Source of the DNA: a bacterium
GTDB lineage: Bacteria > Verrucomicrobiota > Verrucomicrobiia > Limisphaerales > UBA11358
Length of the DNA: 64,000 nucleotides
Assembly (NCBI GenBank): GCA_021817945.1
Contig: JAKAFL010000002.1
Span: 84,929 to 148,928, forward strand
Direction of reading: 5' to 3'
Made by a program: the position numbers and the translations under genes. A model generated the notes under the pieces. The model worked only from the letters and a program-made list of their open reading frames with translations. It had not been told where the DNA came from and made no database searches. Shown one piece after another: positions 12,616-63,940 of this stretch. Position 1 is the stretch's first letter. Every line of letters begins with the position of its first letter.

Positions 12616-13213
12616 TTTTTAAGACGTTGTGAACCATTACCATTTCGGATAAATTGCCAGCCATATTCCAGACAGACAAAGGCCTGATAAGATTAAATCC
12701 GTTTTGATCTGCTCAAACCAAACAGCATGCTCTGTGTTTGGCATTCTGAACAAATCAAAAATTCCGTGCCTGCGATGCTGACGAAAGGTTTATGCGCAAT
12801 GCTCATAGTTATTTTAACATGGTGCTGGCATGCGATAAACCCACCGCGTCTTACCCCCTCTCCGCCAATTTTATTGGGGGAGAGGGACGAGGAGAGGTGG
12901 TGCTGAGATTTCAAAAAGTGAGATTGTTCATCTTTCGCTCTGGCTGTTTGCGAGCACCCCTCTCCTTAATCCTCTCCCCACACTCCGTTTGCGGGGAGAG
13001 GAGACCAAAGGCGTCAGGTTATTTTATGCGCTTGAAAAGGTTGAGCATCTGTGGCGCTTGAAATGTTTTAAGACCGTCACAAACCCATCGTCTCTTTCTC
13101 CCTCTCCGCCAATTTTATTGGGGGAGAGGGGCGGGGAGAGGTGGTGCTGAGATTTCAAAAAGTGAGATTGTTCATCTTTCGCACCGACTGTTTGCGATGC
13201 CCCCCCCTCCCTT

Positions 13214-13405
13214 GGAGAGCCTGTCTGGAAATGGCAATGGGTGCTGTTGTCTGTCGAAAACCCTTCGGGCGGCTTGTCTTTTGGCTTCAGCCTTCGTTGC
13301 TCGCTCCTTGCAGACCCATGGCGGGTATGCTCGTCGTTCGCGCCTCGGCTGAAACCAAAATCCATTGCCGCACCACCCACTGTCATTTCCAGAAAGGCTC
13401 TTTCC
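13214..13405 (+). repeat. 192-bp inverted-repeat-bounded element, copy 1 (MITE-like)
   Basis: Ends GGAGAGCCTGTCTGGAAATGG...CATTTCCAGAAAGGCTCTTTCC. Differs from copy 47686-47877 at 3 positions. Confidence 0.9.
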
Positions 13406-13645
13406 CTCTCCCCACACTCCGTTTGCGGGGAGAGGAGACCAAAGGCGTCAGGTTATTTTATGCGCTTGAAAAGGTTGAGCATCTGTGGCGCTTGAAATGT
13501 TTTAAGACCGTCACAAACCCATCGTCTCTTTCTCCCTCTCCGCCAATTTTATTGGGGGAGAGGGGCGGGGAGAGGTGGTGCTGAGATTTCAGAAAGTGAG
13601 ATTGTTCATCTTTCGCACCGACTGTTTGCGATGCCCCCCTCCCTT

Positions 13646-13837
13646 GGAGAGCCTGTCTGGAAATGGCAATGGGTGCTGTTGTCTGTCGAAAACCCTTCGG
13701 GCGGCATGTCCTTTGTCTTCAACCTTTGTTGCTCCCTCCTTACAGACCCATGGCGGGTATGCTCGTCGTTCGCGCCTCGGCTGAAACCAAAATCCATTGC
13801 CGCAGCACCCACCGTCATTTCCAGAAAGGCTCTTTCC
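13646..13837 (+). repeat. 192-bp inverted-repeat-bounded element, copy 2
   Basis: Same end motifs and same length as copy 1. The central block is the B variant (CATGTCCTTTGTCTTCAACC). Confidence 0.9.
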
Positions 13838-14079
13838 CCCTCCCCACACTCCGTTCGTGGGGCGAGGGAATAAGACACTCTTGATTGTTTAACGGTCTTG
13901 AAAGGGTTAAGCGTCATTGGCACTTGTATTAGTTTAAAACCGTCACAAACCCATCCTCTCTTTCTCCCTCTCCGCCAATTTCATTGGGGGAGAGGTGGTG
14001 CTGAGATTTCGGAAAAAGAAGTTGTTCACCTTTCGCACTGACTGTTTGCGACCACCCCCTCTCCCTTGGAGGCGCTGAG

Positions 14080-15291
14080 TCACGCGAGTTCAACCCAGGG
14101 AGGGGGCGGCCCTCCGTGGGTGAGCCAGTCATAGACTCCCTTCATTTTTTCGGCAACTGCCTGCCATGTGTAATCTTTGCGGACCAAATTGCGCCCGGCT
14201 GCACCCATGGCGGCCAGTTCCGCCGGACCCATGGCCAGGAGTTTATCCAGTCCCTGCCCAATGCCATCCACGCCCGCCGACACCTCCACGGCGCCCCCGG
14301 CCCGGGCCAGTTCGCTGAAATGGCATTCCCGGGTGAGAAGCACCGCTAACCCCGAAGCCGCAGCCTCCAGCACGGCCATGCTAAATCCCTCGCTGTGGGA
14401 GGGCAGCACAAAGGCATCCGCCCCGGCCAGCATCGCGCTTTTGCGGTCGCCATAAGCGGGCCCGGCAAAAACCACCTGGTCGGTCAGGCTCAAATCCACA
14501 GCCATCCGCCGCAATTCCGCTTCGTGGCCGCATTCATCCGGTCCCACCACCACCAGCCGCCAATCCCCTGCACGGGGGCCCGCATGCGCCCAGGCACGCA
14601 GCAAGTCCGGCACCCCCTTTTTGGGATGAATCCGGGATAAAAACAGGAGAATTCGCGCGCCAACCAGATGCGGATGCTCATTCCAGACCCGCCGCGCCTC
14701 ATCCCTGACCAGGGAAGAGGGGAGATCAATGCCGTTGGGAATGACGGCAATGGGGGCTTTCAGGCCATACTCACGCAGGCTCAGCTTCTCCGCGTCGCAT
14801 AGCGCATGAAGGCAATCCGCGCTTTGAAGATTTTTGTTCTCGAAAAGCCGGCCCGCCAGCCGTTTTTTAAGGCTCCCCTGGCGCAAGGCCCAGGGTTCCA
14901 GCATGCCGTGCGGCGACACCACGCGCCGACATCCCATCCGCCGCGATAGGGAACGGCCCAAAATGCCGGGATGCATCCACAGACCGTGCACATGCACCAG
15001 ATCGCCCTTGCCCAGTTCCCCCGCCAGACGGCTTGCGAGATCTGGCGACCAGCCAAAGGCAGCCGGACCTTTCACACGGCCAGAGATGATCGTCAGGGAT
15101 TTGCGTGACCCGGAGTGCTGTTTGGAATCCTCCGCAAAAAAAGCGTCCTCTAATCCGCTCACCACGCCGGGAATACCTAAATCATCGAGGCTGCGGGCCA
15201 AGGCCCAAATGACCGGGGGAATGCCCCCGCCACGCCGCGAGAGCCAGGAGGTAAGATGAATGACCCGCCGCGCTGATTGCGGACCGCTCAC
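14080..15291 (-). CDS. GT4 family glycosyltransferase
   Basis: FVLPSHSEGFSMAVLEAAASGLAVLLT (EX7E-type motif). GTG start at 15291. Confidence 0.85.
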   Translation of the reverse strand: MSGPQSARRVIHLTSWLSRRGGGIPPVIWALARSLDDLGIPGVVSGLEDAFFAEDSKQHSGSRKSLTIISGRVKGPAAFGWSPDLASRLAGELGKGDLVHVHGLWMHPGILGRSLSRRMGCRRVVSPHGMLEPWALRQGSLKKRLAGRLFENKNLQSADCLHALCDAEKLSLREYGLKAPIAVIPNGIDLPSSLVRDEARRVWNEHPHLVGARILLFLSRIHPKKGVPDLLRAWAHAGPRAGDWRLVVVGPDECGHEAELRRMAVDLSLTDQVVFAGPAYGDRKSAMLAGADAFVLPSHSEGFSMAVLEAAASGLAVLLTRECHFSELARAGGAVEVSAGVDGIGQGLDKLLAMGPAELAAMGAAGRNLVRKDYTWQAVAEKMKGVYDWLTHGGPPPPWVELA

Positions 15292-15319
15292 GTGCTTGAC
15301 CTGCCTTTATGGGCCGCCA
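15283..15319. repeat. Direct repeat, left copy (26 nt perfect, ~37 nt imperfect) flanking the acyltransferase cassette
   Basis: ACCGCTCACGTGCTTGACCTGCCTTT is identical to 16625-16650. The extension still reads LAAHKGRSST* on the minus strand, against LMAHKGRSST* at the real GT C-terminus. Confidence 0.9.
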
Positions 15320-15386
15320 ACTTTTTCAGCTTCATTTGGTTCATTGGCCAACTCAACGTCGAATTACCATATATCCCACGTTTTGG

Positions 15387-16517
15387 TCAGTTAACGGCAT
15401 GCGACAAAGGGGTGCGTTTAGTTTTTATTCCGCTTGCCGCTTTTCTTATCCATTCCCTGCAAGGGTGCTCAAAATACCTATAGGAAAGCTCTGAAACCAC
15501 CAAGACCAAGCCAACCACAACAGAACAGGATAAAAATTCACCAAGATGATTTTTCATATAGTTGTTATGGAAAATAGTAATGAATGCTGCCTGCCACAGG
15601 TAAATTGAATACGACCTCTCACCCAGCCATTGAAACACCCTGGTCCTTAAAAGGTGAGCACCCATGCCCTTATCAGAGGCCATAAAGATCACTAAAAATG
15701 GAAAAATAAAAAGAACCGAAAAACCCGGTAAACCAAGAAACGCAACCGAAAACAAAATTCCAATGAACGCAAGCGTCGCCAAGTTGATCAGACGCAAATC
15801 CAAAAATAAGCTGATTTTTTCCCGATAAAGCGAACAAAGCAAAAAACCGATGCTAAACCCAATGATTCCGCGAGCTAGGAAGGCTGGCTTCCAATTAAAA
15901 TTAAAAATGGAGACATTCCCCAGTCTGTATGCCCCAACAACGCAAAAAGCCAAGATCAGAATGAGAACGGCTTTCAGAATGGTGCAAAAGGAATTCTTTT
16001 GCACAAGGCTTTGAAATAAAACAAGCATCGGGAAAATCATGATGTAACAAAAGAATTCAACACCTATGGACCATGCCGGACCATTAAAAGTTGGCAAAGA
16101 ACAGACTCCTGACATCAGGGTCAGATTCAATATAATTTCTCGATGTAGGTCAAAATAAGACCCAACAAATTTTAGCCCATATTTTTGTATACTGTGCAAA
16201 ACAATCGGTATTGCAAGAAATGTTGTCAAATAGTATAGCGGGCAAATTCTTGCAACCCTGGCCACAAAGTAGGATTTCCAATCCACAGGCTTATTTTCAG
16301 ATATGTAAGCCCAATGCAAAATAAAGCCGCTTAAAATAAAAAAGAGGTCCACTGAATATTCGCCCCACTGAAACAATTGGCATATTCGATTTGCCCGCAA
16401 GACACCACCACCCGCCCATGTTAGATGGAATAGAAAAACATATAAAGCTGCTATTCCCCGCAAACCAGTATGTGAATAAATTGCTTTTATTGAGGGTTTC
16501 ATCATTTTTAAAAACAC
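15387..16517 (-). CDS. Acyltransferase family 3 membrane protein (probable glycan O-acetyltransferase)
   Basis: LRGIAALYVFLFHL N-terminal motif and about 10 hydrophobic helices. The gene is strongly AT-rich relative to its neighbours. Confidence 0.8.
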   Translation of the reverse strand: MFLKMMKPSIKAIYSHTGLRGIAALYVFLFHLTWAGGGVLRANRICQLFQWGEYSVDLFFILSGFILHWAYISENKPVDWKSYFVARVARICPLYYLTTFLAIPIVLHSIQKYGLKFVGSYFDLHREIILNLTLMSGVCSLPTFNGPAWSIGVEFFCYIMIFPMLVLFQSLVQKNSFCTILKAVLILILAFCVVGAYRLGNVSIFNFNWKPAFLARGIIGFSIGFLLCSLYREKISLFLDLRLINLATLAFIGILFSVAFLGLPGFSVLFIFPFLVIFMASDKGMGAHLLRTRVFQWLGERSYSIYLWQAAFITIFHNNYMKNHLGEFLSCSVVVGLVLVVSELSYRYFEHPCREWIRKAASGIKTKRTPLSHAVN

Positions 16518-16624
16518 CCGATTTAATACCCCTGCTTATTCCCAATTCGAATTATATCGCCTTCCAATATTGGAAATATTTTTAAACCAAGTAAAAAAAA
16601 GGAGCCACCCTTTATTTTGGATAA

Positions 16625-16661
16625 ACCGCTCACGTGCTTGACCTGCCTTTGTGCGCCATCA
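16625..16661. repeat. Direct repeat, right copy, covering the stop codon region of GT 16630-17913
   Basis: Same 26-mer as 15283-15308. Confidence 0.9.
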
Positions 16662-17913
16662 GCAGCCAGAGTTGCAGACGGGCGAGCAGGGAAAACGAAG
16701 CGGGTTGGGCGGATATTGCCGCCAGCGCGGCCTGTTCCAAGCCTTGGGCGAAATGGTCGGTGCCCCATTTGGAAATGGCAAACCGGGATCTCCTGCCCAT
16801 GGCGGCCAGGTCCTGATCGGGCTGTCCGCAGCGCAACATCAACCGGGCCATTTGCACGGTGTCCCCGGGGTCGAAGGTAAAGCCATTCAACCCTTCCTCC
16901 ACCAGGTCGCCCGCGCAACCGCAGCGGCACGACACCAGCACGGGCAATCCGCACGCCATGGCCTCGTTCACCACCAGGCCCCATTGCTCGGTGATGCTGG
17001 GATGAATGAAAGCCGAGGCCAGGGCATAAAAAAGAGGCAGTTCCTGGTACTGCTTGAACCCGCGCAAAAGCACGTTTTCGCTGAGGCCCAGGGCGCGGAT
17101 GCGCTCAACCAAAGACTCGCGCAAGGGTCCATCACCCATGATGACCAAGTCCCATGGCTTGGCGCCATTGGCCCCATCCTGCACCTGCCAAAGCTGCCGG
17201 TACCGGGAATACGCCTCCACCAATCCATCCAGATTCTTCTTGGGCACAAACCGGGCTGATGCCAGGAAAAAGGTTTCCGGCAGGTTATGTTGCCGACGCA
17301 ATTCCCCGGCGTGACTTCTGAACTGACCCGATTGCTCCTGAAAATAGTCGTTGTCCACGGTGTCATAGCCCGTGAAAATGCGGTCAGCCGGGAAGCCCAG
17401 CTTCTTCAGATATTCTGCATGCGCCCTGCCCCCCACCAATGCGGCGCCGAACAGTTTCAGGAGGCGGCCCTTGATGCCTTCCTTGATTTGCTGGCGATTA
17501 AAATCCCAGGCCGTGGATTCGGACATGACCACGGCGGGCACTTTTTGTTTGGCACACCAATCCAGCGCAGCCAGCGCGCAGCGATCCGACCAGCCCGGGA
17601 TGGCCACCGCCTGGGGCTGAATGCGCGACAAGGTTTCATGGATTCGATGGCGAATCCGCCCGGCGGAGAGGTTTTCCACCGCTTCATTGGCGAACAATTT
17701 CACCCGCTCGAAACCGGCGGCTCCATCCATGGGGTCCCAGGCATACATCCGGTCCACGTCGGAGAATTCCACCGCCGTGACCTGCATTCTGCGGGCTGCG
17801 GCCTGGATCCGGGCATGATGATAAGGCCCCAAGCGATGGAACAGCACGGCCACGCGCAATTTTTTTGCCCCAGGCTTTCCCGCCCCGGATACCGCATGTT
17901 CAGAAATCATCAA
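16630..17913 (-). CDS. GT4 family glycosyltransferase
   Basis: FIHPSITEQWGLVVNEAMACGLPVLVS motif; 427 aa. Confidence 0.85.
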   Translation of the reverse strand: MMISEHAVSGAGKPGAKKLRVAVLFHRLGPYHHARIQAAARRMQVTAVEFSDVDRMYAWDPMDGAAGFERVKLFANEAVENLSAGRIRHRIHETLSRIQPQAVAIPGWSDRCALAALDWCAKQKVPAVVMSESTAWDFNRQQIKEGIKGRLLKLFGAALVGGRAHAEYLKKLGFPADRIFTGYDTVDNDYFQEQSGQFRSHAGELRRQHNLPETFFLASARFVPKKNLDGLVEAYSRYRQLWQVQDGANGAKPWDLVIMGDGPLRESLVERIRALGLSENVLLRGFKQYQELPLFYALASAFIHPSITEQWGLVVNEAMACGLPVLVSCRCGCAGDLVEEGLNGFTFDPGDTVQMARLMLRCGQPDQDLAAMGRRSRFAISKWGTDHFAQGLEQAALAAISAQPASFSLLARLQLWLLMAHKGRSST

Positions 17914-17978
17914 AGAGCCTGTCTATAAAGGACCTTGGGCGCTGCGTCAATGGATTTTGGGCCGTCCCACCGCCGTTT

Positions 17979-18036
17979 CTCACCCTCCCCCCGCGCTTCG
18001 CTGGCATGGGGAGGGAATAAAGACACGCTGGATCGT
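17979..18036 (+). repeat. Solo H3-type hairpin module
   Basis: CTCACCCTCCCCCCGCGCTTCGCTGGCATGGGGAGGGAATAAAGACACGCTGG, same family as H3 modules in the arrays. Confidence 0.8.
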
Positions 18037-18049
18037 TGGACGCCATCGT

Positions 18050-19594
18050 TCACCCCTGCCGGATCCCGGTAAACCCCTTGCGCTTGCGCAAACCGTGCCG
18101 GCGAGCTTCACTGAACATAAAGCTCAATCTTGGAGCGGCATGGGTCATGGCCCCCCACGCGGGTTGAGCGGCCGCCGGTTGGCGGGCTGCCTGTTGAGGC
18201 AGCGCGTCCGATCTGTGCGAGCCTACCCCGGCGCGCGCCCGACGCCGTTCGATCCACCAGATCAACCCGGCCCCGAACACAAAAGGATAAAGCGTGATCA
18301 AGGTAATGTCCCGGCCCAGGTTGAAAGTCAGGATCAAGCCCAGCGCGTACATGGGCAATCGGCCGAACTCCTGCACCTGCAAATCATATCTGGCCAGCCA
18401 GACCACCCAGAGACTCATGAGGAGCGCTGCGGCTGCGGGGCCTAAAATGCGGCCAAAATTCACCACCCCCTGCCCGATCATGCCGGTGGAGATGGTGGTG
18501 TCCACCGTGCCGTTTGGACCGGTGATGTGATGGCCCCGGGCAATGGCGTAATCCAGTCCGATCAAGGGCTTGTTATGCCACAACCCACGGGGGATGGGAT
18601 TCACCAACTCCGCAAAATAGCGCTGGCCCCAGTTGACCCGATAACGCCCGTTCTCAATGAAAGTGCTGATCCAGCACAGCTCCTCGTACATGTTGAGTCC
18701 CTCGTTGTGGACTTTCTTTTGGGCGCTCAAATTCAAACCTTGTTCCTGGAATGCCGCCGTGATGGTGGTATGAGACCGATTGGCGATGATGAATTTCATC
18801 CAGACATTAATGGCCAGAAAAAACAGGAGCAAAACGGCGGCTTTTTTCCACATGCCACCCCTTAACTTTAAGAACACCCAGCATAGGATTGCCGGAATCA
18901 CCAGCGCGAGCAACTGGTTGCGTGTGCGGCTGAAAATGAAAAAGGGCCAGGCTGCAATGCACAGGGCCAAGGCCTGGATCCGAACCTTCCGGTCTGCCGC
19001 CAAGGCCAGAACCACACCCAGCATGGTGGCCGAAAGCAATTGGAGATAAACGGCGACAATCGAAAAGCAATCGAAGCCCGCGCCGATCTGGCCGTGTGAC
19101 CACGGATTGGCCTGATAGCCGAGAAACGGAAAGACATAATAAATCACCTGATCTTTCAATACCAGGAAAGCCACGAAGAGAAGAAACAACCACACAGCGG
19201 CGCAGCCCGCAAAAACCCGTTTGATTTGCCTTTGAATCATTGGTTGATCCACACCGTGTTGGAACAACTTCATCACCCCGCTCCCCCGCGATTTCAGGCT
19301 GCCATTGATGCGGTCGTGCAGCATCGGTGCCGAAACTAGGAAAACCACAAGAAACCACGCCACCTGCCACCAGGCGCTGCTTAGCACTTCCGGCGTAAAC
19401 AATTTTACATGGTTGTGGGGGTAATCATTGTAAAAAGCATCACCCACGTACCAAGCAGCCACGGTGCCCAGGACTGCCAGCAGCGGCAGACCCGTGCCAT
19501 CCTTCATGCGATGCCAGCCCATCATGCCGCCCCACGCGAGGAGCAGAATGACCACCCAAAAGCTGACGGGCATTATGGAGAGAGTTTCGATCAC
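18050..19594 (-). CDS. Wzy / O-antigen-ligase-like polytopic membrane protein (putative polymerase)
   Basis: 514 aa with more than 10 hydrophobic helices. It has FIFSRTRNQLLAL and a large late loop with HNEGLNMYEELCWISTFIENG, as in the Wzy_C domain. The C-terminal ~70 aa are low complexity. Confidence 0.6.
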   Translation of the reverse strand: MIETLSIMPVSFWVVILLLAWGGMMGWHRMKDGTGLPLLAVLGTVAAWYVGDAFYNDYPHNHVKLFTPEVLSSAWWQVAWFLVVFLVSAPMLHDRINGSLKSRGSGVMKLFQHGVDQPMIQRQIKRVFAGCAAVWLFLLFVAFLVLKDQVIYYVFPFLGYQANPWSHGQIGAGFDCFSIVAVYLQLLSATMLGVVLALAADRKVRIQALALCIAAWPFFIFSRTRNQLLALVIPAILCWVFLKLRGGMWKKAAVLLLFFLAINVWMKFIIANRSHTTITAAFQEQGLNLSAQKKVHNEGLNMYEELCWISTFIENGRYRVNWGQRYFAELVNPIPRGLWHNKPLIGLDYAIARGHHITGPNGTVDTTISTGMIGQGVVNFGRILGPAAAALLMSLWVVWLARYDLQVQEFGRLPMYALGLILTFNLGRDITLITLYPFVFGAGLIWWIERRRARAGVGSHRSDALPQQAARQPAAAQPAWGAMTHAAPRLSFMFSEARRHGLRKRKGFTGIRQG

Positions 19595-19859
19595 AAATTC
19601 TTTTGCCGGGATTTTAGGGTTATTTAAACTCCCTGGCTACATCTTCAAATTGAAATTATCCGGTATGAAGTCAAATTGAACGCGTCATTTTTTGCTTCCT
19701 CTCCGCCAAGTACCAGAGGGGGCGGGCCAGCAGTACAACCGCGAATGGACGCCAATTCACGCCAATGAAAATTCTTTTGCGGGGCGGGGAGACCGGGGGC
19801 GCTGGGTGGGTGTTTGTTTTAATTGTCTCACTGACAGTTTGCGAGTGCCCCTCTCCCTT

Positions 19860-20051
19860 GGAGAGCCTGTCTTGAAATGGCAATGGGTGCTGTTGTCTGT
19901 CGAAAACCCTTCGGGCGGCATGTCCTTTGTCTTCAACCTTTGTTGCTCCCTCCTTACAGACCCATGGCGGGTATGCTGGTCACTCGCGCCTCGGCTGAAC
20001 CCAACATCCATTGCCGCACCACCCACTGTCATTTCCAGAAAGGCTCTTTCC
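19860..20051 (+). repeat. 192-bp inverted-repeat-bounded element, copy 3
   Basis: Same ends and length as copies 1 and 2. Central B variant, with the 3' end variant of copy 1. Confidence 0.9.
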
Positions 20052-20777
20052 CTCTCCCCACACTCCGTTCGTGGGGCGAGGGAATAAGACACTCTTGATT
20101 GTTTAACGGTCTTGAAAGGGTTTAGCGTCATTGGCACTTGTATTAGTTTAAAGCCATATCAAACCCACCGCGTCTTACCCCCTCTCCGCCAATTTTATTG
20201 GGGGAGAGGGACGGGGAGAGGTGGTGCTGAGATTTCGGAAAAAGAAGTTGTTCACCTTTCGCACTGGCTGATTGCGAGGTCCCCCCTCCCTGGCCCTCCC
20301 CCCGCGCTTCGCTGGCAGGGAGAGGGAATAAGAGGCGCTGGGTTGCTTATGCGTTTGAAAGGATTGAGCGTCATTGGCGCTTGAAATGTTTTGAGACCGT
20401 CACAAATCCACCGCTTTTTCTCCCTCTCCGCCAATTTCATTGGGGGAGAGGGACGGGGAGAGGTGGTGCTGAAATTTCAGAAAGTGAGATTGTTCATCTT
20501 TCGCACTGACTATTTGCGATCTCCCCCCTCCCTGGCCCTCCCCCCGCGCTTCGCTGGCAGGGAGAGGGAATAAAAGGCGCTGGATTTTTTAAGGATATTG
20601 AAAGGGTTTAGCGTCATTGGCACTTGTATTAGTTTAAAGCCATATCAAACCCACCGCGTCTTACCCCCTCTTCGCCAATTTCATTGGGGGAGAGGGACGG
20701 GGAGAGGTGGTGCTGAAATTTCAGAAAGTGAGATTGTTCATCTTTCGCACCGACTGTTTGCGATGCCCCCCTCCCTT

Positions 20778-20868
20778 GGAGAGCCTGTCTTGAAATGGCA
20801 ATGGGTGCTGTTGTTTGTCGAAAACCCTTCGGGCGGCTTGTCTTTTGGCTCAAGCCTGCGTTGTTCAT
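20778..20868 (+). repeat. 192-bp element, truncated 5' half (copy 4)
   Basis: GGAGAGCCTGTCTTGAAATGGCAATGGGTGCTGTTGTTTGTCGAAAACCCTTCGGGCGGCTTGTCTTTTGGCT..., then homology is lost into an H2 module. Confidence 0.8.
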
Positions 20869-21265
20869 TTCTCCCCTCTCCTTAATCCTCTCCCCACACT
20901 CCGTTCGCGGGGCGAGGAGACCGGAGGCGCTGAGCTTTCAAAAAGTGAGATTATTTATTTGTCGCACTGAATGTTTGCGAGTGCCCCCCTCCCTGGCCCT
21001 CCCCCCGCGCTTCGCTGGCAGGGAGAGGGAATAAGAGGCACTGGGTTATTTAGCGGTTTTGAAAGGGTGGAGCGTCTTTGGCCATCGAAACGTTCAGAGA
21101 CATTATTAGATCCAACGTCTTTTGATCCCTCTTCGCCAATTTTATTGGGGGAGAGGTGGTGTTGAAAGAACGCCGGGTGAGGGCACCCGGCCTACAAGGC
21201 GGCAGGTTTCGGTTTCTGTCGGCGCTCCGAGTTTGTGCCTGCGATGCGTTTGATAACAGACTTGG

Positions 21266-26672: not shown

Positions 26673-27605
26673 TTATTTCCCGGCTTTCGCAATTAATTTG
26701 CGTCGAAGTATCTGGTGAATTTTTTTAATACAATCGCGATCATCTGTGTCAGCCACCGCGCCTGACAGGAGCCATGCGTCATTGATTCTACGAAACTCGG
26801 CCTGGTCCTGTTCCAGCGCATATCGAATCGTTTTCGATGGCGAAAAGCCAAAATCCGCCGGGTCAACCCACTTTGCACCTTTCAAGAACATTTCCCGCAC
26901 ACTGGGATGCGCGTGGTAAACTGGAATACAGCCCGCACGGGCCGCATTCACATACTTTTCAGTAAAATACCGCTCCTCCAAACAATTTTCCAGACAAACG
27001 GCCACCTTAAATTCTGAAAGAAAAAGAAGATATTCATCACTATAGTAGCCATTCCCCGGGGAACTTCTACCTTGGTGATTTAAAGGAAGACCTCGCCTCC
27101 ACACTCTGGGGAAATCCCTGAAACGCTTCCACGAGTCCAGATTGCCATAAAGCTCTACCAAAGGGTCTAAAATCATGCGGTTTCTTGACCAAATATGCTT
27201 TTTCAGAAACCATAATCTGCCTCCATAATTACTCACGCATGCAACTGCCGCTTCCCTCACCACAGGCTGCCGTGGAAATGTCATCGGACCCCGAAACGTT
27301 GGATGCGGAACGCGGTAGGCCGGATTTGGATTGCCGTAAAATACATGTTCGGATTCATCCAATTTCCTCATCAACTTCTTGCCAATGGGATGACTATGAA
27401 AATGATGATGCCATTTTGGTTCAATGGTAAACCAAACCTTGGGTCCGGAAAATTCAAGCAATTCTTCAGTGGGATCATAAAGGGCTACAAGACCATCTGC
27501 TTCCTTAAGATTAACCCGAGGAGAATAGAGCACGTCATCAATCTGAAAGTCGTTCCATTCCGACGTTCTGTATTGCTGCGATACAATCCTGAACTTATTT
27601 TTCAA
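26673..27605 (-). CDS. GT10-like (alpha-1,3-fucosyltransferase-type) glycosyltransferase
   Basis: FKVAVCLENCLEERYFTEKYVNAARAGCIPVYHAHPSV parallels the FucT motif FxLxFENSxxxxYVTEK...PVYWG. TTG start overlaps the upstream stop (TTGA). Confidence 0.55.
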   Translation of the reverse strand: MKNKFRIVSQQYRTSEWNDFQIDDVLYSPRVNLKEADGLVALYDPTEELLEFSGPKVWFTIEPKWHHHFHSHPIGKKLMRKLDESEHVFYGNPNPAYRVPHPTFRGPMTFPRQPVVREAAVACVSNYGGRLWFLKKHIWSRNRMILDPLVELYGNLDSWKRFRDFPRVWRRGLPLNHQGRSSPGNGYYSDEYLLFLSEFKVAVCLENCLEERYFTEKYVNAARAGCIPVYHAHPSVREMFLKGAKWVDPADFGFSPSKTIRYALEQDQAEFRRINDAWLLSGAVADTDDRDCIKKIHQILRRKLIAKAGK

Positions 27606-28585: not shown

Positions 28586-28725
28586 TTTAATTTCAATTAA
28601 TTGAAGAACGGTAAACTATTTAGCAACCGCAATATTAATCACAATCCTTTAGATTTCCATTCCATGAATGCTCCGATTCATTCCGTTGCGGCTGCAAATT
28701 TCCTTCAACTGCTTGACGATAAACC

Positions 28726-37031: not shown

Positions 37032-37057
37032 GAAAATTTATACCCAACCAGCAATTT

Positions 37058-37505
37058 AACCGCGAATGGACGCCAATTCACGAGGATGATACTTTATTTT
37101 TGGAGAGAGGGAATAAGACACGCTTGGTTTTTTAGCGGTCTTGAAAGGGTGGAGCGTCATTGACACTTGGAATGTTTTAAAGCCATATCAAACCCATCGC
37201 TTTTTTCTCCCTCTCCGCCAATTTTATTGGGGGAGAGGGACGGGGAGAGGTGGTGCTGAACGAACGCCGGGTGAGGGCACCCGGCCTACAAGGCGGCAGG
37301 TTTCCGCTCTGACTGTTTGCGAGCGCCCCTCTCCCTGGCCCTCTCCCCGCGCTTCGCTGGCAGGGAGAGGGAATAAGAGGCTATGGGTTTGCCATGGCAT
37401 CTACAAATATTCCGCTCCTACGGAGCTCCCAATTGGAGTGACGAGGAGACCAGAGGCGCTGGGTTGTTTAAGGCGTTTGAAAGGGTTGAGGGTTATGGGC
37501 GTGCC
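37058..37505 (+). repeat. Mosaic hairpin-repeat array 3
   Basis: Edge motif AACCGCGAATGGACGCC (37058-37074), H1 at 37211, P hairpin at 37267-37284, H3 and T modules. Confidence 0.9.
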
Positions 37506-38572: not shown

Positions 38573-38654
38573 AAGATTTTATTTTTTAGAGACTGATTTA
38601 AAATTCGGAGTAGCGCCCCTCCCAATTTTAAAACAGTCTCTTAGACGGGTAGTT

Positions 38655-39191
38655 CAACCGCGAATGGAGCCTCGTTTACGGGGCGGGGAGACCGGAGGCG
38701 CCGGGCAATTTTGTTTGTTCAATTATCGCACTGACTGTTTGCGAGCGCCCCTCTCCCTGGCCCTCTCCCCACACTCCGTTCGTGGGGCGAGGGAATAAGA
38801 GGCTCTGGGTTGTTTTATGCGCTTGAAAGGGTGGAATGTCTGTGGCGCATGTAGTAGTTAAAGGCCAAATTGAACCTACCGCTTTTTTCTCCCTCTCCGC
38901 CAATTTTATTGGGGGAGAGGGCCGGGGAGAGGTGGTGCTGAGCTTTCAGAAAGTGAGATTGTTTATTTTTCGCATTGACTGTTTGCGATCTCCCCTCTCC
39001 TTAATCCTCTCCCCACACTTCGTTTGCGGGGAGAGGGAATAAGAGGCGCTGGGTTGTTTTATGCGCTTGAAAAGGTTGAGCATCATTGGCGCTTGAAATG
39101 TTTTAAAACCGTCACAAACCCATCGTCTCTTTCTCCCTCTCCGCCAATTTCATTGGAGGAGAGGGACGGGGAGAGGTGGTGCTGAGCTTTC
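38655..39191 (+). repeat. Mosaic hairpin-repeat array 4
   Basis: Edge motif CAACCGCGAATGGAGCC (38655-38672). H1 copies at 38893 and 39136 (period 243). It stops at ...GGTGGTGCTGAGCTTTC, directly before the DUF559 stop codon. Confidence 0.9.
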
Positions 39192-39199
39192 TCCATTTT

Positions 39200-39631
39200 T
39201 TAAGCCGTTTTCGTTCGGATGAGTTTCTCAGGATCTGGAGGCAAAAAGCGGTGATTCTGAGTTTTTCGCACCACTTTTACATATCCCGTTCGCTCATTCA
39301 ACTGACCCCAAATTTCCAACAAAACCCCCTCGCGCTGGCTTCGCCATTGCCGATTCCAAAAACGCATCACAACAATTCCATGATCGGCCAAATTTTTGTC
39401 TCGTTCCGTGTCGTGCTCCAACTGCATTGGCAATCCATGTTGAAAGCCATCAAGCTCCACTGCCAACCGGGCCAGGGGACAATAAAAATCGAGAACATAA
39501 TTCCCACATGAATATTGTCGCCGAAATTTGAACCCAGCAAAGCGCCCCGCACGCAAGACTCGCCACAATGATTTCTCATCATCCGTCATCGAGCGGCGAA
39601 GACGTCTGGCATTCCCTTTGACCAGCGTCAT
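39200..39631 (-). CDS. DUF559 (Vsr/restriction-endonuclease-like) domain protein
   Basis: LWRVLRAGRFAGFKFRRQYSCGNYVLDFYCPLARLAVELDGFQH...DTERDKNLADHGIVVMRFWN, the canonical DUF559 pattern. Confidence 0.85.
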   Translation of the reverse strand: MTLVKGNARRLRRSMTDDEKSLWRVLRAGRFAGFKFRRQYSCGNYVLDFYCPLARLAVELDGFQHGLPMQLEHDTERDKNLADHGIVVMRFWNRQWRSQREGVLLEIWGQLNERTGYVKVVRKTQNHRFLPPDPEKLIRTKTA

Positions 39632-39676
39632 AAATCCGTGAGTACAACACCTTGATATTGCATAAAGGCTGGATTA

Positions 39677-40097
39677 TCTCCCCTCTCCTTAATCCTCTCC
39701 CCACACTCCGTTCGTGGGGCGAGGAGACCGGGGCGCTAAGGTTTCGAAAAGTGAGATTGTTTATTTGTCGCACTGACTGTTTGCGAGCGCCCCTCTCCCT
39801 GGCCCTCTCCCCGCGCTTCGCTGGCAGGGAGAGGGAATAAGAGGCGCTGGGTTTTTTAAGGCTCTTGAATGGGTCGAGCGTCATTGACGTGCCAAAATAG
39901 ATTAAAACCGTCTCCAACCCACCGTCTCTTTCTCCCTCTCCGCCAATTTCATTGGGGGAGAGGGACGGGGAGAGGTGGTGCTGAACGAGCGCCGGGTGAG
40001 GGCACCCGGCCTACAAGGCGACAGGTTTCCGCTCTGACTGTTTGCGAGTGCCCCTCTCCCTTGGAGAGCCGCTGGGTGGGTTTATGCGTCATTGGTG
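39677..40097 (+). repeat. Mosaic hairpin-repeat array 5
   Basis: Starts with the H2 module TCTCCCCTCTCCTTAATCCTCTCCCC. H1 at 39936 and P hairpin at 39992-40009. It ends 3 nt before the DUF218 gene stop. Confidence 0.9.
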
Positions 40098-40735: not shown

Positions 40736-40802
40736 CTGTTTTTTGAGAAGGTCACACTCAGTTTTTGAAATTTCATAAAAAACGGCAAACCCGGCGTTTT
40801 TT

Positions 40803-40837
40803 CTCCCTCTCCATCAATCCCCATTGATGGGGAGGGG
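40803..40837 (+). repeat. Solo hairpin, ATCAAT-loop variant of H1
   Basis: CTCCCTCTCCATCAATCCCCATTGATGGGGAGGGG. Similar variants occur at 46402-46435 and 63768-63797. Confidence 0.8.
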
Positions 40838-41054
40838 TGGGCAGACTTCGTCCCGGTCAATTCGCAGTCCGCTTTTCAACGGGCGGGCGATTCACCCTAA
40901 GGCAACGAATCTTATTTTTCATTCACTGGCAAAGCCGCCACGCGAGCCGACTTGCAACAGACATGCCCAACTCAAACCAGACCCACACCAAACTCACACC
41001 AAAAGCATGTCAATCCCAACCATCAAAAAACCTGAAACCCTGCGCCTGGCCGGC

Positions 41055-45481: not shown

Positions 45482-45508
45482 ATGCCTGTCCCAACCCCGC
45501 CTGAATGG

Positions 45509-46180: not shown

Positions 46181-46270
46181 GCCAAAATCCTACACGGCAA
46201 GTCTGCATCCGCACAAGGGAATTGAGAGTGAAATTCCCCCTGCCCGCCCGCCGGAGCCGGGGCGGCAGGT

Positions 46271-46450
46271 CAACCGCGAATGGACGCCTCGTTTGCGGGG
46301 TGAGGGAACCGGGGGCGCTGGGTTGATTTATACGCTTGAAAATGGGGTTCACATTCAACGCTCGAAATGGTTTTAGGCCAAGGCAAGCCTTCCGCGTCTT
46401 TCTCCCTCCCCATCAATCCCGGTTGATGGGGAGGGCCGGGGATGGGTGGC
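46271..46450 (+). repeat. Mosaic hairpin-repeat array 6 (short)
   Basis: Edge motif CAACCGCGAATGGACGCC (46271-46288), H2 3' half, T-like tail and the ATCAAT-variant hairpin 46402-46435. Confidence 0.8.
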
Positions 46451-47093: not shown

Positions 47094-47164
47094 CCGGGCT
47101 GGCTTGGAAGAGTTTCCCCTCCAGCATCTTGACCCTTTCCATTTAGCATTTCGGGTTCAATTGT

Positions 47165-47964
47165 CGCACTGACTGTTTGCGAGCGCCCCTCTCCCTAACC
47201 CTCTCCCCACACTTCGTTCGTGGGGCGAGGGAATAAGAGGCGCTGGGTTTATTTATACGCTTGAAAATGGGGTTCCCTTTCAACGCTCGAAATGCAATAA
47301 AGACCACCTTAAATCCATCGTCTCTTTCTCCCTCTCCGCCAATTTCATTGGGGGAGAGGGACGGGGAGAGGTGGCGCTGAGTTTTCTGAAAGTGAGATTG
47401 TCCATCTTTCGCTCTGACTATTTGCAAGCGCCCCTCTCCCTAATCCTCTCCCCACACTCCGTTCGTGGGGCGAGGGAATAAAAGGCGCTGGGTTGTTTAA
47501 TACGCTTGAAAAGGTTGATCGTCGTTGGTGCTTGAAATGTTTTGAGACCGTCACAAACCCATCGTCTCTTTCTCCCTCTCCGCCAATTTCATTGGGGGAG
47601 AGGGACGGGGAGAGGTGGTGCTGAGCTTTCAGAAAGTGAGATTGCTTTTTTCGCACTGACTGTTTGCGATTTCCCCCCCTCCCTTGGAGAGCCTGTCTGG
47701 AAATGGCAATAGGTGCTGTTGTCTGTCGAAAACCCTTCGGGCGGCTTGTCTTTTGGCTTCAGCCTTCGTTGCTCGCTCCTTGCAGACCCATGGCGGGTAT
47801 GCTCGTCGTTCGCGCCTCGGCTGAAACCAAAATCCATTGCCGCAGCACCCACCGTCATTTCCAGAAAGGCTCTTTCCCTCCCCCCCGCACTTCGCTGGCA
47901 GGGAGGGGGAATAAGACACCCTGGATAGTTTTATGCGTTTGAAAGGGTGATGCCTCCTTGGCGG
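47165..47964 (+). repeat. Mosaic hairpin-repeat array 7 (H1 at 47332, 47576)
   Basis: Period of 244 bp. It contains 192-bp element copy 5 and lies in the convergent gap between the CheY-like gene and the kinase gene. Confidence 0.9.
47686..47877 (+). repeat. 192-bp inverted-repeat-bounded element, copy 5
   Basis: Three differences from copy 1. Here it is nested in an H3-type hairpin rather than an H2-type hairpin. Confidence 0.9.
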
Positions 47965-48004
47965 ACGAACCACTCCCATTCCGGAACGAGCGCCTGGCCA
48001 ATTC

Positions 48005-54689: not shown

Positions 54690-55081
54690 TTACAACAAAA
54701 TAATTCTTTAAACCAGCCCGGCAAAACCACCCGGGCGTCCCACCCGCCCCGCCTCCAAGGCTGTTTGCTGGTTTATCATGAGGGCCTAGCATAGCTGGAA
54801 ACAGTTTGATGCAAAGAAAAAACACCCGCCTGAAGCGGCGCTGTGCCCGTGGGATCATTTTCCGAAGGTTTAACCCGAAAAGGGAAATTGAAAGGGTCAA
54901 GATGCGGCAAGATGCTGGAGCGGAAACTCTTTGTAAAAATCGAAACCATACCCGAAGCGGTCTGGTGAGATTTTTCCAATGAGTTTGCGCCCAGTAGATT
55001 GGGGCAAATTGGCCTTTTCAATTTCGCTTTTCGGAAAAGCTCACTTTGAGCTGGTTGTAAATTTGCTTAACCCGCTCTCAT

Positions 55082-59629: not shown

Positions 59630-59831
59630 TGCTTTTTCGCGTCCTTTTCCAAACTGGGGCGGGAAGCACCACTCATCAGGTGCTTCCGGATAAAATGGGA
59701 TTCACTTGCTTAAATCCCATGACAGGGGCATGCCTCGCTCAGGCCGGCACCCCCGTCCCGGCGCTTGATGCTTTTTTACGCATTATCTCCATGGAGAAGA
59801 GGTGCGCCACCAACCTGAATGCTTGATGCCT

Positions 59832-61535: not shown

Positions 61536-61770
61536 GCAGTATCATAGGGCTGTCCACGGGAAGTTCCAATGAAGTTTGAGTTCTTTCTTGCTGGAATCCC
61601 ATTTTCAACCGGAACCATGGAATCTGCGTGAAGCCTCAATCCTGAAACTTGTCCGGAGATGAAAAGGAGCGATCTTTGCAAACCACCTCAACTTCACCAT
61701 CCGGGCCCGCAGTCATTTTAGGGCTGAACCCCGACCGTGGATTTCCCTCATGTCGCTTGATGACCGGTTT

Positions 61771-62835
61771 TCAATTCCGCAGATAATGACAGGTATATCC
61801 ACCGGGATTTTTTTGCAGGTAATCCTGGTGATATTCCTCCGCAGGATAAAATATCGTGGCAGGAATGATTTCCGTGACCACTGGATTCTTCCATTTTCCG
61901 GATTTGTCCACCTGCATTTTGACGCGTTCAGCAACCTCCCTTTGAGCCTGGCTGGTGTAAAAAATCGCTGACCGATATTGGGATCCGACGTCGTGCTGCT
62001 GGCGGTCACGCGTGGTGGGATCGTGCATGCGGAAGAAATAGCCAAGCAATTGCTCATAGCTCAACTTGGCGGGATTAAAAACCACCTTCACCGCCTCAGC
62101 GTGCCCGGTGGTGCGCGAACAGACCGTTTCATAGGTGGGATCGGGCGTGTGGCCGCCGGTGTACCCAACGGTGGTTTGAATGACGCCCGGAATGGAACGC
62201 AAAATTTCCTGCATCCCCCAGAAGCAGCCACCCGCCAGGATTGCGGTTTCGGTTTTGGGTTGAGGTTGGATCAAGCCAGCCTGAACGAATGGGGCAAGCT
62301 GATCGCCATAGCCAGCGGCGGCCATTTGGGCCAGGGGAATAAATTTAAGCGAAGCGGAATTGATGCAAAAACGCTGATGGGTTGGCCCCGGTCCGTCTTC
62401 AAAAACGTGCCCCAGGTGGGAATCCGCGCCAACCGAACGCACTTCAGTCCGCTCCATGCCAAAAGAGTCATCCGCTTTCTCAATGATGGCGTTCTGATCC
62501 ACAGGCCGGGTAAAACTGGGCCAACCGCAACCGGAATCAAACTTGTCCAGCGAGCTGAATAGAGGCTTTCCTGAGACGATATCCACATAAATACCCGGCG
62601 CATGATTGTCCCAGTATTCATTTTCAAACGGCGGCTCGGTGGCGGCCTCTTGGGTGACCCGGTACTGCATGGGAGTGAGTTTTTGCTTTCGTTCAGCCGG
62701 TGGAATGGGAGTGAAATGATTCATGGTGAAATTGTTTGATGCCAGCCCCGAACCAGCGCTTTCACTGGGTCGGCACCCAGCCAAAGCCATGGCAAGAAAG
62801 ACCAACCCGCACGCACGATTAAGAAACTGCCTCAT
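61771..62835 (-). CDS. msrBA: Exported (lipoprotein) bifunctional methionine sulfoxide reductase, MsrB domain followed by MsrA domain
   Basis: GCGWPSF and RFCINS (MsrB), then GCFWG (MsrA). Lipobox LAGC follows the Met at 62835. The ORF is open upstream to 63165, but that extension looks non-coding. Confidence 0.85.
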
Positions 62836-63289
62836 GCAGGTCAGACGCGCAACTGGCGATTTCCTTACATTCCTCTTTTCATGCAAGGATTGCCTTCTTT
62901 GATCAACCGACTCGAACAGCTCCTTCCGGGTTGCCACGCCCGCTCCCCTTTGGATAGCCGGGTCTTTTAAATGAATCCGCGTTGACCGTTGAGACTCATG
63001 GGGGTGGAAATTGCAAATACTCGGATTGAAAAATGCAACATAAGCCCCTCCCGAAAGCTCAGCTCGGGCGCATATCGGTTTTAGGCTGGTGAAATTTGGG
63101 TGGAAGGAGAGTGAAAGGGCGGTTTTGGGTTTGTTTTTGACCATGTGGAGCATAGGCATGCCCAACGGGGGGCGGATATTCCCCGCAATCTTGGTTAGAT
63201 TGGATGCTTTTTATGTGCCGCCCCTATGAGGCTCGGAATGATTTTTGGAGGTTGAATTTCTACGAATAGGTCGCCCCTCTGGGACTTGG

Positions 63290-63940
63290 CGGAACACCCC
63301 CATTCCGAAAACTCAGCACCACCTCTCCCCGTCCCTCTCCCCCAATGAAATTGGCGGAGAGGGGGTAAGACGCGACGGATTCAAGGTGGCCCTTATTCCA
63401 TTTCGAGCGCCCCAAACGCTCCACCCCTTCAAAGGCATAAAACAACCCAGCGCCTCTTATTCCCTCTCCCCGCGAACGGAGTGTGGGGGAGAGGGAAAGA
63501 GCCTTTCTGGAAATGACGATGGGAGCTGCGGCGATGGATTTTGGGTTCAGCCGAGCCGTGAGCGACGAGCATACCCCACGTGGGTCTGTAAGGAGTGAAC
63601 AACAAAGGCTGAAGACAAAAGACACGCCGCCCGATGGGTTTTCGACAGACAACAGCACCCTTTGCCATTTCCAGACAGGCTCTCCAAGGGAGAGGGGCAC
63701 TCGCAAACAGCCAGCGCGATAAATGAGCAATCTCATTTTCCGAAAGATCAGCGCCACCCCTCCCCGGCCCTCCCCATCAATGGGAATTGATGGAGAGGAA
63801 GAAAGCGGCGATGGATTCAATAGGGTTTTAACCATTTCGAGCGTCGAGGATGACCGGTATTTTAAAGCGCATTCAATAACCCTGCGCCTCTGGTTTCCTT
63901 GCCCCGCCAGCGGAGGGCTGGAAGAGGATCAAAGAGGGGA
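63290..63940 (-). repeat. Mosaic hairpin-repeat array 8 (inverted orientation; may continue to window end)
   Basis: Reverse-complement H1 at 63335-63361, 192-bp element copy 6, ATCAAT-variant hairpin at 63768-63797 and reverse H2 near 63880-63940. Confidence 0.85.
63494..63685 (-). repeat. 192-bp inverted-repeat-bounded element, copy 6 (most diverged)
   Basis: The reverse complement aligns end to end with copies 1-5 without indels. Confidence 0.85.

Follow-up and report, generated by a model that had tools for sequence, protein, structure and literature searches.

What fills the spacers of a surface-polysaccharide locus in an uncultured member of the Limisphaerales (phylum Verrucomicrobiota), and how did it come to be there? 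In the window, that is, the whole stretch of 64,000 nt analysed here, the first-pass annotation had described a single modular, non-coding family of hairpin repeats built from modules called H1, S, H2/H3 and T. Our analysis supports this description: all the modules are present in the order claimed, every repeat copy is intergenic, and H1 occurs 15 times at ≤3 mismatches (14 copies on the plus strand and one on the minus strand, at 63335-63361), against 0 copies in 100 shuffled windows. The H1 starts quoted were right to within 1 nt, two of them lying at 13102 and 39137 instead of 13101 and 39136, and the 242-244 bp period was recovered by TRF, which gives 242, 244 and 432 bp. Self-BLAST also returns the ~5.8 kb of repeats announced, a local density of ~9% of the window, but distributes them over 9-10 blocks and not eight arrays (Table 1). 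Three hairpins are of the ATCAAT type, as counted before (~40811-40830, 46410 and 63774-63793). As for the genomic setting, the proposed location of arrays at boundaries of GC content is clear for array 1 (47% vs 62%) but weak for array 2 (58% vs 54%), and the antisense orientation of the arrays to the genes holds in the window but not for the lone copies in a related genome, which show no consistent orientation.

Table 1. Repeat arrays, isolated repeat fragments and the associated endonuclease gene in the window.
Feature	Coordinates	Strand	Self-BLAST block	Content and position
Array 1	12832..14077	+	12836-14077	Four H1/TM(+) hairpins at 12858, 13102, 13536, 13968; H2/TM(-) hairpins, linkers S and T; two ~210-bp M inserts (~13198-13405, ~13632-13839); right end 2 nt from stop codon of GT4 gene 14080-15291
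Solitary left-arm fragment, H3/TM(-)-type	17978..18042	+	17912-18037	Occupies gap between two genes
Array 2	19727..21210	+	19727-21210	One M insert; three full 242-bp units (20046-20230, 20234-20472, 20476-20716); partial units onward to H1 at 21129
Array 3	37048..37505	+	37048-37505	Whole spacer from epimerase gene to ABC-exporter gene
Array 4	38648..39192	+	38648-39192	Two units (38705-38941, 38945-39185); last TM(+) hairpin, 39129-39176, immediately before DUF559 gene
DUF559 / Vsr-like PD-(D/E)XK endonuclease gene, intact	39200..39631	-		143 aa; PF04480, E=7e-34
Array 5	39673..40075	+	39673-40075	Left arm from 39681 (CCCTCTCCTTAATCCTCTCCCC); one full unit 39743-39984
Partial unit	40744..40845	+	40800-40836	ATCAAT-variant hairpin 40811-40830
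Partial unit (T + ATCAAT-variant right arm)	46264..46450	+	46264-46450	Divergent promoter region of two response-regulator genes
F2 fragment, then array 6	47113..47974	+	47155-47963	F2 fragment 47113-47155; full units 47149-47380 and 47384-47624; then S, M (~47670-47880), H3 arm
F2 full copy	54868..55040	-		1.4-kb insert at same site in another strain
Inverted array	63303..63939	-	63303-63939	Units 63313-63499 and 63748-63939, M copy between

The modules and their order were thus found as described, but the chain H1-S-H2-T is better understood as inverted 64-nt arms around a core. On its sequence, the unit is best taken as a doublet of inverted arms, left and right being reverse complements of each other; arms compared in this way score 7-28 (≥14 in 15 of 19 units), whereas the same alignment of shuffled sequences gives 1.7-3.8 (sd 1.3-1.9). 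The consensus fold agrees with this anatomy: 96.6% of its cells are paired, the H1 variant shows compensatory changes (C-G to T-A), and G.U pairs are numerous on the plus strand alone. The form of the unit that carries no gene consists of a right arm, a linker S of ~70 nt and a left arm, with a core T of ~63 nt between successive pairs. Along the arrays the hairpins alternate -,+,-,+ and so do the two kinds of linker, following the pattern TM(-) - T - TM(+) - S - TM(-), with a head-to-tail period of 242-244 bp that becomes 432 bp when module M is nested within. M is a ~210-bp insert with its own terminal inverted repeats, and a second repeat family, F2 (~160 bp), ends in the inverted repeats CCGAAAAGCGAAATTGAAAGG. 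The copying of multi-module blocks between arrays was also confirmed, since 13632-14050 in array 1 and 19846-20277 in array 2 are collinear at 94% identity, and a rare S variant is limited to two sites, 14003 and 20229. Because the closest relative of a unit is usually not the adjacent unit, simple tandem duplication cannot account for everything.

To what class do the arms belong? Hundreds of genomes carry BoxC/PIT/TM motifs, which have been on record since 1992 and are markers of unstable loci. Early descriptions are reportedly those of Bergler in 1992 and of Hoyne and Maher in 2000 and 2002, and to our knowledge these motifs have no known function, origin, mobilising gene or activity. Judged by its letters, each arm of the window is an intrastrand-triplex motif of this already described class. 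The published TM consensus is CCCTCNCCC - N3-6 - GGGNGAGGG - N3 - GGGNGAGGG, and the arms fit it as CCCTCNCCC-loop-GGGNGAGGG-N3-GGGNGAGGG. When the first loop was relaxed to 4-16 nt, the window contained 11 exact matches against 0 expected, and a looser TM pattern gave 20 (12 plus, 8 minus) against 0 in 20 shuffles. Indeed, the motif at 47188-47231(-) is identical at 30 of 31 non-loop positions to the BoxC element between ycjD and fabI of E. coli K-12 (L046, 7207-7240). Common to the window and this class are the succession of CCCTC(N)CCC, a loop, GGG(N)GAGGG, a 3-nt loop (TTA or CCG/CCA types) and again GGG(N)GAGGG, a conserved stem mismatch, exclusively intergenic location, inverted pairs, loci that are hyper-variable among close strains and the lack of a classical transposase nearby. 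Since a C-rich arm is followed by its G-rich complement and then by a third block, again G-rich, formation of a triplex is predicted to be possible; stable triplex was not found in vivo by Holder et al. 2015, who treated the BoxC/PIT/TM (TMECO) motifs (PMC4666352). The window departs from the TMECO consensus in its extended stems and first loops of 9-13 nt instead of 3-6 nt, the second loop being ACG/GCG/CCG, TTA or CCA. In addition, the motifs form part of 64-nt arms and are accompanied by conserved linkers, their pairs follow one another in tandem arrays with a 242-432 bp period that make up ~9% of the local sequence, and the host is a verrucomicrobium, Verrucomicrobia not being named in the main text of PMC4666352. 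A further difference is a DUF559 gene, a link unmentioned in the BoxC/PIT/TM literature.

Of all features of the arrays, this gene proved the most informative. The first-pass annotation had noted the absence of any RAYT or intact transposase, and Pfam searches of the window ORFs agree, but it overlooked the intact endonuclease gene at 39200-39631(-). The gene is the only one found between the arms; it stands exactly where linker S would be expected, with a TM(+) arm on one side and a TM(-) arm on the other, and takes the place of the linker after 55 nt of shared sequence. Its product keeps the residues that are invariant across 22 aligned homologs. The same gene, at 95.8% nt identity, sits in array 2 instead in strain DAIEDL. 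It could be a passenger that landed in, or was moved by, recombinogenic repeats.

Do similar hairpins accompany DUF559 genes in other bacteria? TM-like hairpins or G/C-rich inverted repeats were present at the gene ends in the four independent DUF559 lineages found first, and BoxC/TM-type hairpins adjoin DUF559 in 15 other sampled loci, E. coli ycjD included; they flank the gene in L045, in L035-L044 and at ycjD. In a test set of 12 DUF559 loci, taken from complete replicons of several phyla, motif density was 8.75/kb at ≤200 bp from the gene and 0.92/kb elsewhere (p=4e-24), with ≥2 near motif matches in 8 of the 12 loci (p=2e-8), and inspection by eye revealed TM-like hairpins or G/C-rich inverted repeats at the gene ends in all 12. 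Such repeats thus recur at DUF559 genes in many phyla, sometimes as tandem arrays, which in Neisseria, Photobacterium and another verrucomicrobium lie directly against the gene. These loci suggest an enzyme partner for the BoxC/TM repeat class, through a link that is purely positional. A DUF559 protein of Caulobacter leads to DNA damage in vivo (PMC12907096).

We propose, giving the idea an even chance of being right, that a small selfish element, a DUF559 endonuclease gene bracketed by BoxC/PIT/TM-type hairpins, gave rise to the arrays as non-coding derivatives that lack the gene. The gene-less form would have multiplied genome-wide in this Limisphaerales lineage, its units piling up head-to-tail in spacers that were ancestrally only 3-38 bp long. 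By analogy with the mismatch-nicking Vsr, the DUF559 protein might bind or nick the folded hairpin with its conserved G.A or G.G mismatch. Repair of the resulting nick or break through recombination or copying would then spread the units, expand the arrays through unequal exchange and turn them into breakpoints at which the intervening glycan genes are gained, lost or shuffled. More tentatively, and somewhat short of even confidence, DUF559 (YcjD-like, Vsr-fold) endonucleases may be the cognate enzymes of BoxC/PIT/TM repeats throughout bacteria, a second partnership of nuclease and hairpin repeat besides RAYT-REP, here with a PD-(D/E)XK enzyme. On this view, the target of the enzyme would be the hairpin with its mismatch and its capacity for a triplex. 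Nicks made there would drive the spread of the repeats, their amplification in tandem and the local genome instability for which the motifs have long been noted, with the Limisphaerales arrays as an extreme outcome. That genes of DUF559, a small and uncharacterised nuclease family, are consistently found next to BoxC/PIT/TM motifs provides a concrete hypothesis for these motifs, testable in a model organism because E. coli K-12 has a member of the DUF559 family.

The distribution of the repeats bears on how they arose. They are not confined to this locus: they occur genome-wide in the species, on nine contigs of MAG clean1975, and units adjoin cysC as well as rpsB and tsf, the latter two in MAG DAIEDI, whose other contigs match the window at 99.99-100%. 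The next relative, at 78% HK identity, shows the same gene order without repeats, its spacers measuring 3, 21 and 38 bp (21 bp in place of array 3), so the arrays are recent, lineage-specific insertions. Unit number varies between strains. No clean pair of empty and filled sites was found, the polymorphic sites being replacements and not precise insertions; in MAG clean1975, for example, 52 bp of unrelated sequence replace array 6. Array boundaries match synteny breaks and a 7.57-kb gene-block difference between assemblies, in agreement with the hyper-variability of TM loci published for E. coli (PMC4666352), and this speaks for the DUF559/TM element proposed above. At the inverted array, homology to contigs of three other strains begins at ~63363-63384, inside the array, from where two contigs run through into different genes and the third starts there. 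The surface-polysaccharide locus appears to be divided by the arrays into blocks that are not the same in co-occurring strains, and for this reason the repeats may shape cell-surface diversity.

Could the repeats be useful to their host? They might be structural DNA or RNA elements under selection that spread by homologous recombination alone, either as H-DNA or cruciform recombination hot spots diversifying the surface-glycan locus, as insulators or as mRNA-stabilising hairpins between transcription units. We consider this unlikely, although the block copying between arrays and the differing GC content of the gene blocks that they bound are in its favour, as is the hyper-variability of TM loci in E. 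coli (PMC4666352). It also accommodates the synteny breaks at the arrays, the presence or absence of a four-gene block there and the different neighbours of the arrays in three strains. Nevertheless, units also stand next to housekeeping genes (rpsB, tsf, cysC), the close relative keeps the same cluster without them, and recombination alone leaves their dispersal to unlinked loci unexplained. Moreover, the hairpins have no T-runs, though the organism uses canonical terminators, and no activity as promoters or terminators was seen for PIT elements in E. coli (cited in PMC4666352).

It is rather improbable that the arrays are a conventional family of the MITE/REPIN type that owes its mobility to a RAYT/IS200-IS605 Y1 transposase or a DDE IS encoded elsewhere and acting in trans, with DUF559 as an unrelated passenger. 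The BIME-like architecture noted earlier is real, since oppositely oriented hairpins and linkers of two types follow one another in alternation, as in BIME-2-like clusters. REP/BIME and REPIN-RAYT systems (REPtrons) also share with the window the short imperfect palindromes with a conserved mismatch, the inverted doublets foldable to a long hairpin and a nuclease gene with its repeats on both sides. Two observations fit single-strand transposition, namely pairing that favours one strand (G.T on plus, A.C on minus) and the common orientation of seven of the eight arrays. Terminal inverted repeats typical of MITEs are present in the unit (64-nt arms), in M (~30 nt) and in F2 (~22 nt), and TGA lies at both junctions of three lone copies, with no empty site recovered. 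Like MITEs, Correia, ERIC/IRU, RUP, BOX and Nezha elements, the repeats are non-coding, ~200-260 bp long, intergenic, found within operons, nested in each other (M and F2) and multiplied in lineage-specific bursts. The inspected part of this genome is only ~81 kb, with one DUF559 copy. However, no RAYT (Y1/HUH) or IS was detected in the window, in 17.5 kb flanks or among 10 ORFs adjoining lone copies, and unlike MITE-like repeats the family has no identified cognate IS, no clear target-site duplication and a strong tendency to head-to-tail arrays. Identity with REPs was rejected, as no stem has an adjacent GTAG and CGTC precedes H1 by ~10 nt in only some of the copies; the hairpins also contain a third strand-like block, the period of 242 bp is much longer, and the gene encodes a PD-(D/E)XK Vsr-like nuclease, not a HUH/Y1 transposase. 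Holder et al. saw no transposase remnants at 23 E. coli TM loci and state that mobility genes were never found near the motifs (PMC4666352). The DUF559 association, moreover, is far too regular for chance.

Two further repeat systems were compared with the window. MIRU-type minisatellites (VNTRs) share tandem direct units in operon spacers and a strain-dependent unit number, but the present units are far longer, are made of inverted hairpin arms and are also dispersed singly. An integron attC cassette array was rejected, with no integrase among the Pfam matches and, on inspection of the sequence, no GTTRRRY core sites in the arms.

Could each unit be a gene, or part of one, for a structured non-coding RNA that folds into a three-way junction and is read from the plus strand, antisense to the glycan genes? 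This seems very doubtful. The consensus fold with its 49 pairs is certainly extensive, 96.6% of cells being paired and z-scores ranging from -3 to -8, and in 9 of the 10 units folded the plus strand is ~4-22 kcal/mol more stable than the minus strand, the remaining one showing no difference; this follows from the many G.U pairs, which exist on the plus strand only. Covariation is modest and equally expected of DNA hairpins or inverted repeats. An Rfam 15 search of the window gave 0 matches at the gathering score and only chance-level, miRNA-like ones (E ~0.2), no promoter-like or terminator-like signals were found in the units, and genome-wide orientation relative to genes is inconsistent. Besides, RNA does not form purine-motif triplexes (PMC4666352).

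Finally, it is hardly credible that the arrays are an artefact of short-read metagenomic assembly: many contigs do end within them, and one assembly skips the 7.57 kb between arrays and leaves a circular-path contig, yet contigs from independent assemblies and strains contain them internally at 95-100% identity, arrays 1 and 2 share no exact match longer than 104 nt, which is below k=141, and the motif class is also present in finished genomes. The repeat family does explain why MAGs of this lineage are fragmented at the array points. Shortcuts taken through repeats during assembly may account for some of the 'rearrangements' between strains; among the contigs concerned is a circular graph path whose ends overlap by 141 bp, equal to the assembler's k.

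Judged by their sequence, the hairpin arms in the intergenic arrays of the window are copies of the BoxC/PIT/TM intrastrand-triplex motif (TM), and this identification is secure. In each arm a C-rich block is followed by its G-rich complement and, after a 3-nt loop, by a second G-rich copy, three blocks in all. With a longer first loop, the published TM consensus finds 11 sites in the window where 0 are expected; a looser form yields 20, and their orientation alternates along each array. The copy at 47188-47231 shares 30 of 31 non-loop positions with the BoxC that lies between ycjD and fabI in E. coli K-12. The motif was first noticed beside envM (fabI) in E. coli; Hoyne & Maher and Holder et al. 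(PMC4666352) characterised it. TM motifs are described as always intergenic, often arranged as inverted pairs and devoid of promoter or terminator activity; compared with control loci, theirs vary far more from strain to strain, and they are reported to have no mobility gene nearby (PMC4666352). The first-pass annotation had called the repeats BIME-like, which is apt for the architecture, as these arrays also alternate in orientation and use two linkers; the elements themselves, however, are BoxC/TM motifs, an already known kind, and lack the GTAG/CGTC tag, which places them outside REP/BIME.

The modules of that description (hairpins H1 and H2/H3, spacer S, tail T) were recovered in the order stated, and its H1 count, period, repeat amount, collinear blocks, rare S variant and ATCAAT hairpins are descriptively accurate, with coordinates off by 1 nt. 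The H1 pattern has 15 window matches at up to 3 mismatches (14 plus, 1 minus) and none in 100 shuffles, TRF gives tandem periods of 242, 244 and 432 bp, and self-BLAST delimits 9-10 blocks of repeated intergenic sequence, ~5.8 kb in total, spread over 12.8-63.9 kb. Positions 13632-14050 match 19846-20277 at 94% identity; the window has exactly two copies of the rare S variant and three ATCAAT-type hairpins. In an alignment of 19 units, two segments prove to be reverse complements of each other: one of ~64 nt, made up of the C-rich block, the H2 or H3 hairpin and GGCGCTGGGTT, and one containing AACCCAYCG..., the H1 hairpin and GGGGAGAGG; scores of arm against reverse complement range from 7 to 28 and reach at least 14 in 15 units, compared with 1.7-3.8 (sd 1.3-1.9) for shuffles. 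A unit is thus an inverted doublet whose ~63-nt core is the former T, and S (~70 nt) is the linker between units. The units share a consensus fold, a closed three-way junction in which 96.6% of cells pair and, on the plus strand only, many G.U pairs occur; covariation is modest, compensatory changes being clear in H1 hairpins of the ATCAAT type. Such features would fit any function needing folded single-stranded DNA or RNA, and do not discriminate between them.

What had been overlooked is a gene inside the arrays. The ORF at 39200-39631(-) encodes an intact DUF559 / Vsr-like PD-(D/E)XK endonuclease (Pfam, E=7e-34), among whose relatives PDB 3HRL is the only solved structure. The gene sits between a TM(+) and a TM(-) arm, in the exact slot of linker S, and the locus shares 55 nt with ordinary units before diverging into it. 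In strain DAIEDL it is array 2 that holds this gene (95.8% nt identity), with the genes for the 1483-aa and 507-aa proteins on either side, and a repeat-free relative, whose orthologous kinase is 78% identical, has no DUF559 gene at the corresponding junction. The other nine of ten ORFs inside the arrays gave no Pfam domain, so the repeats are not explained by protein coding.

Is the link between DUF559 and TM general? A 72%-identical homologue in another genome is bracketed by TM motifs found nowhere else in 6.7 kb. At the locus of a 67%-identical homologue, from another verrucomicrobium, a TM(+) lies 14 nt before the start and a TM(-) at 4446-4485 overlaps the 3′ end of the annotated 175-aa DUF559 ORF. 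Upstream of the gene in this organism (L037 2881-3996) are 2.6 repeats of a 426-bp unit. Each copy contains TM hairpins and duplicates the initial ~120 bp of the gene after DUF559, which has a T5orf172 domain; the element appears to have entered this gene at its 5′ end. At E. coli ycjD (48% identity), a degenerate TM covers the stop codon, the 3′ end is duplicated, and 170 nt downstream there is a perfect BoxC. A less biased test covered 12 DUF559 loci on complete replicons of Alpha-, Beta- and Gammaproteobacteria, Deinococcota and Cyanobacteria. Words of the CCCTCNCC type occurred at 8.75/kb within 200 bp of the gene and at 0.92/kb in the remaining 115 kb (p=4e-24), and two or more near matches were present in 8 of the 12 loci, where 5% was expected (p=2e-8). 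By eye, all 12 carry TM-like hairpins or G/C-rich inverted repeats at most 160 bp from the gene, two of them with variant sequences. Tandem TM-bearing arrays adjoin the gene in finished genomes from other phyla (see table). This link was noted neither in the TM paper (PMC4666352) nor in the DUF559 literature searched, in which a Caulobacter DUF559 protein is shown to cause DNA damage in vivo (PMC12907096). The doublet-and-linker array form in a verrucomicrobium is new; more important is the recurrent association of DUF559 with TM, which would make an old puzzle testable in E. coli.

Coordinates of the arrays, the nested and dispersed repeats, and the TM-bearing arrays next to DUF559 genes
Feature	Location	Repeat	Source
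Array 1	12832..14077		window
Array 2	19727..21210		window
Inverted array	63303..63939(-)		window
M copies	~13198-13405, 13632-13839, 19846-20051, 47670-47880, 63489-63700		window
F2 copies	54868-55040, 47113-47155		window
F2 copies	3265-3421, 3673-3829, 5861-6011		L028
Tandem TM-bearing array adjoining DUF559 gene	L053 5404-6263	281 bp x 3.1	Neisseria gonorrhoeae, finished genome
Tandem TM-bearing array adjoining DUF559 gene	L056 5349-7010	148 bp x 5.8 and more	Photobacterium, finished genome

The arrays are most economically read as gene-less derivatives of a DUF559/TM element amplified in this lineage. The positions of gene and repeats are secure, as is the recency of the arrays; we infer that the DUF559 nuclease would act on the hairpins, and the mode by which units may be copied is likewise conjectural. 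In the repeat-free relative, gene order is conserved from LepA as far as the epimerase and ABC transporter genes, 22 kb contain no unit, and the spacers measure 38, 3 and 21 bp where the window has arrays of 0.8, 1.5 and 0.5 kb, so the arrays are lineage-specific insertions into former operon spacers. With one genome per species, an exact H1 scan found H1 only in the related Limisphaerales MAG clean1975, on nine contigs, two of them syntenic with the window at 94-97% identity. Single units in this MAG adjoin rpsB, cysC and other housekeeping genes, always intergenic and with no consistent orientation relative to genes. Assembly DAIEDI, other contigs of which match the window at 99.99-100%, has units upstream of rpsB and downstream of tsf; the latter is missing in clean1975, with 670 bp of other sequence in its place. 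None of the three polymorphic sites examined is a clean empty site, each being a replacement or lying within homologous units.

Amplification by an unseen classical transposase was weighed as a rival: no RAYT or IS matches were found near lone copies. Viral contigs had no H1 match and only one remote DUF559-like locus, without TM, and phage genomes gave only two weak DUF559 matches. A second rival was selection for recombinogenic or insulating DNA. The locus itself differs between strains. In three ~99%-identical strains, homology to the window begins inside the inverted array (~63363-63384), two of the contigs crossing it into different genes and the third starting within it; in one strain, window 39191 is joined to other genes. 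One ENA assembly (L029 17723-18183) lacks window ~13158-20717, 7.57 kb with four genes (GT4, acyltransferase, GT1 and the 507-aa membrane protein), the junction falling inside homologous units of arrays 1 and 2. A separate 6355-bp contig (L032), with ends overlapping by 141 bp, carries these genes, and the window arrangement is backed by another MAG and Logan contigs. Since the longest exact match between the two arrays (104 nt) is below k=141, real recombination is plausible, the other option being an assembly shortcut at lower k. In the 3x-coverage clean1975, L009 1-3349 joins window 40805 via 2.2 repeat units to 46284, resembling a circular permutation of the regulator block, by either rearrangement or mis-join.

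For a structured RNA, the third rival, Rfam gave nothing real in the window at gathering or E-value thresholds, a tRNA/tmRNA scan gave none, and sigma-70 promoter and intrinsic-terminator scans gave no signal inside the arrays, with counts near shuffle expectation. Canonical terminators (GC hairpin plus T-run) follow tsf (L028 5808-5845) and the 1483-aa gene (window 21172-21191(-)); ordinary terminators are thus in use in this organism, and the repeat hairpins, having no T-runs, are of a different kind. An artefact is dismissed, as the arrays are internal to contigs of independent assemblies; contigs of several assemblies match the window at 99-100% identity.

Simple tandem duplication does not account for all the units. 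Only in array 1 are neighbours the closest relatives (97.8%); elsewhere the nearest relatives are mostly equivalent units in different arrays, a pattern that points to transfer of blocks, or gene conversion, from array to array. In array 1 the last H1 (window 13968-14004) lacks 12 nt (GGGGAGAGGGAC) present in its array 2 counterpart, which fits slippage between adjacent GGGGAGAGG blocks of the triplex motif.

Two further repeats occur nested within the arrays. M measures ~210 bp, has inverted ends of ~30 nt and contains a C(UUCG)G-type hairpin; every copy is inserted in the left arm, where it separates the C-rich block from the arm's hairpin, and it resembles a nested MITE. F2, a second dispersed family of ~160 bp with 22-nt terminal inverted repeats CCGAAAAGCGAAATTGAAAGG, typically brackets lone units (F2-unit-F2), with TGA at both junctions. 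In strain DAIEDH (L022 8455-9863), the F2 copy between lepA and a GH2-like gene (window 54847-55035) gives way to a 1.4-kb insert that carries two small ORFs and a gene with a SocA/Panacea domain.

Nearly all genes of the window are encoded by the minus strand and make up a surface-glycan cluster (GT4, GT2 and GT1 transferases, acyltransferase, ABC exporter, epimerase, Wzz-type tyrosine kinase), followed by regulators (AraC, NusG paralogue, LuxR-type response regulator, hybrid kinase) and then housekeeping genes. Antitermination by the NusG paralogue at ops-like sites was dropped, the NusG, AraC, LuxR and HK genes being kept in the repeat-free relative; an integron attC reading was rejected, with integrase and core sites both absent. 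Large cluster genes at window 21266-25717(-), 18050-19594(-) and 27602-29622(-), the 1483-aa protein among them, have no Pfam domain. GC swings between 39% and 62% across the glycan cluster, which suggests a mosaic of acquired blocks.
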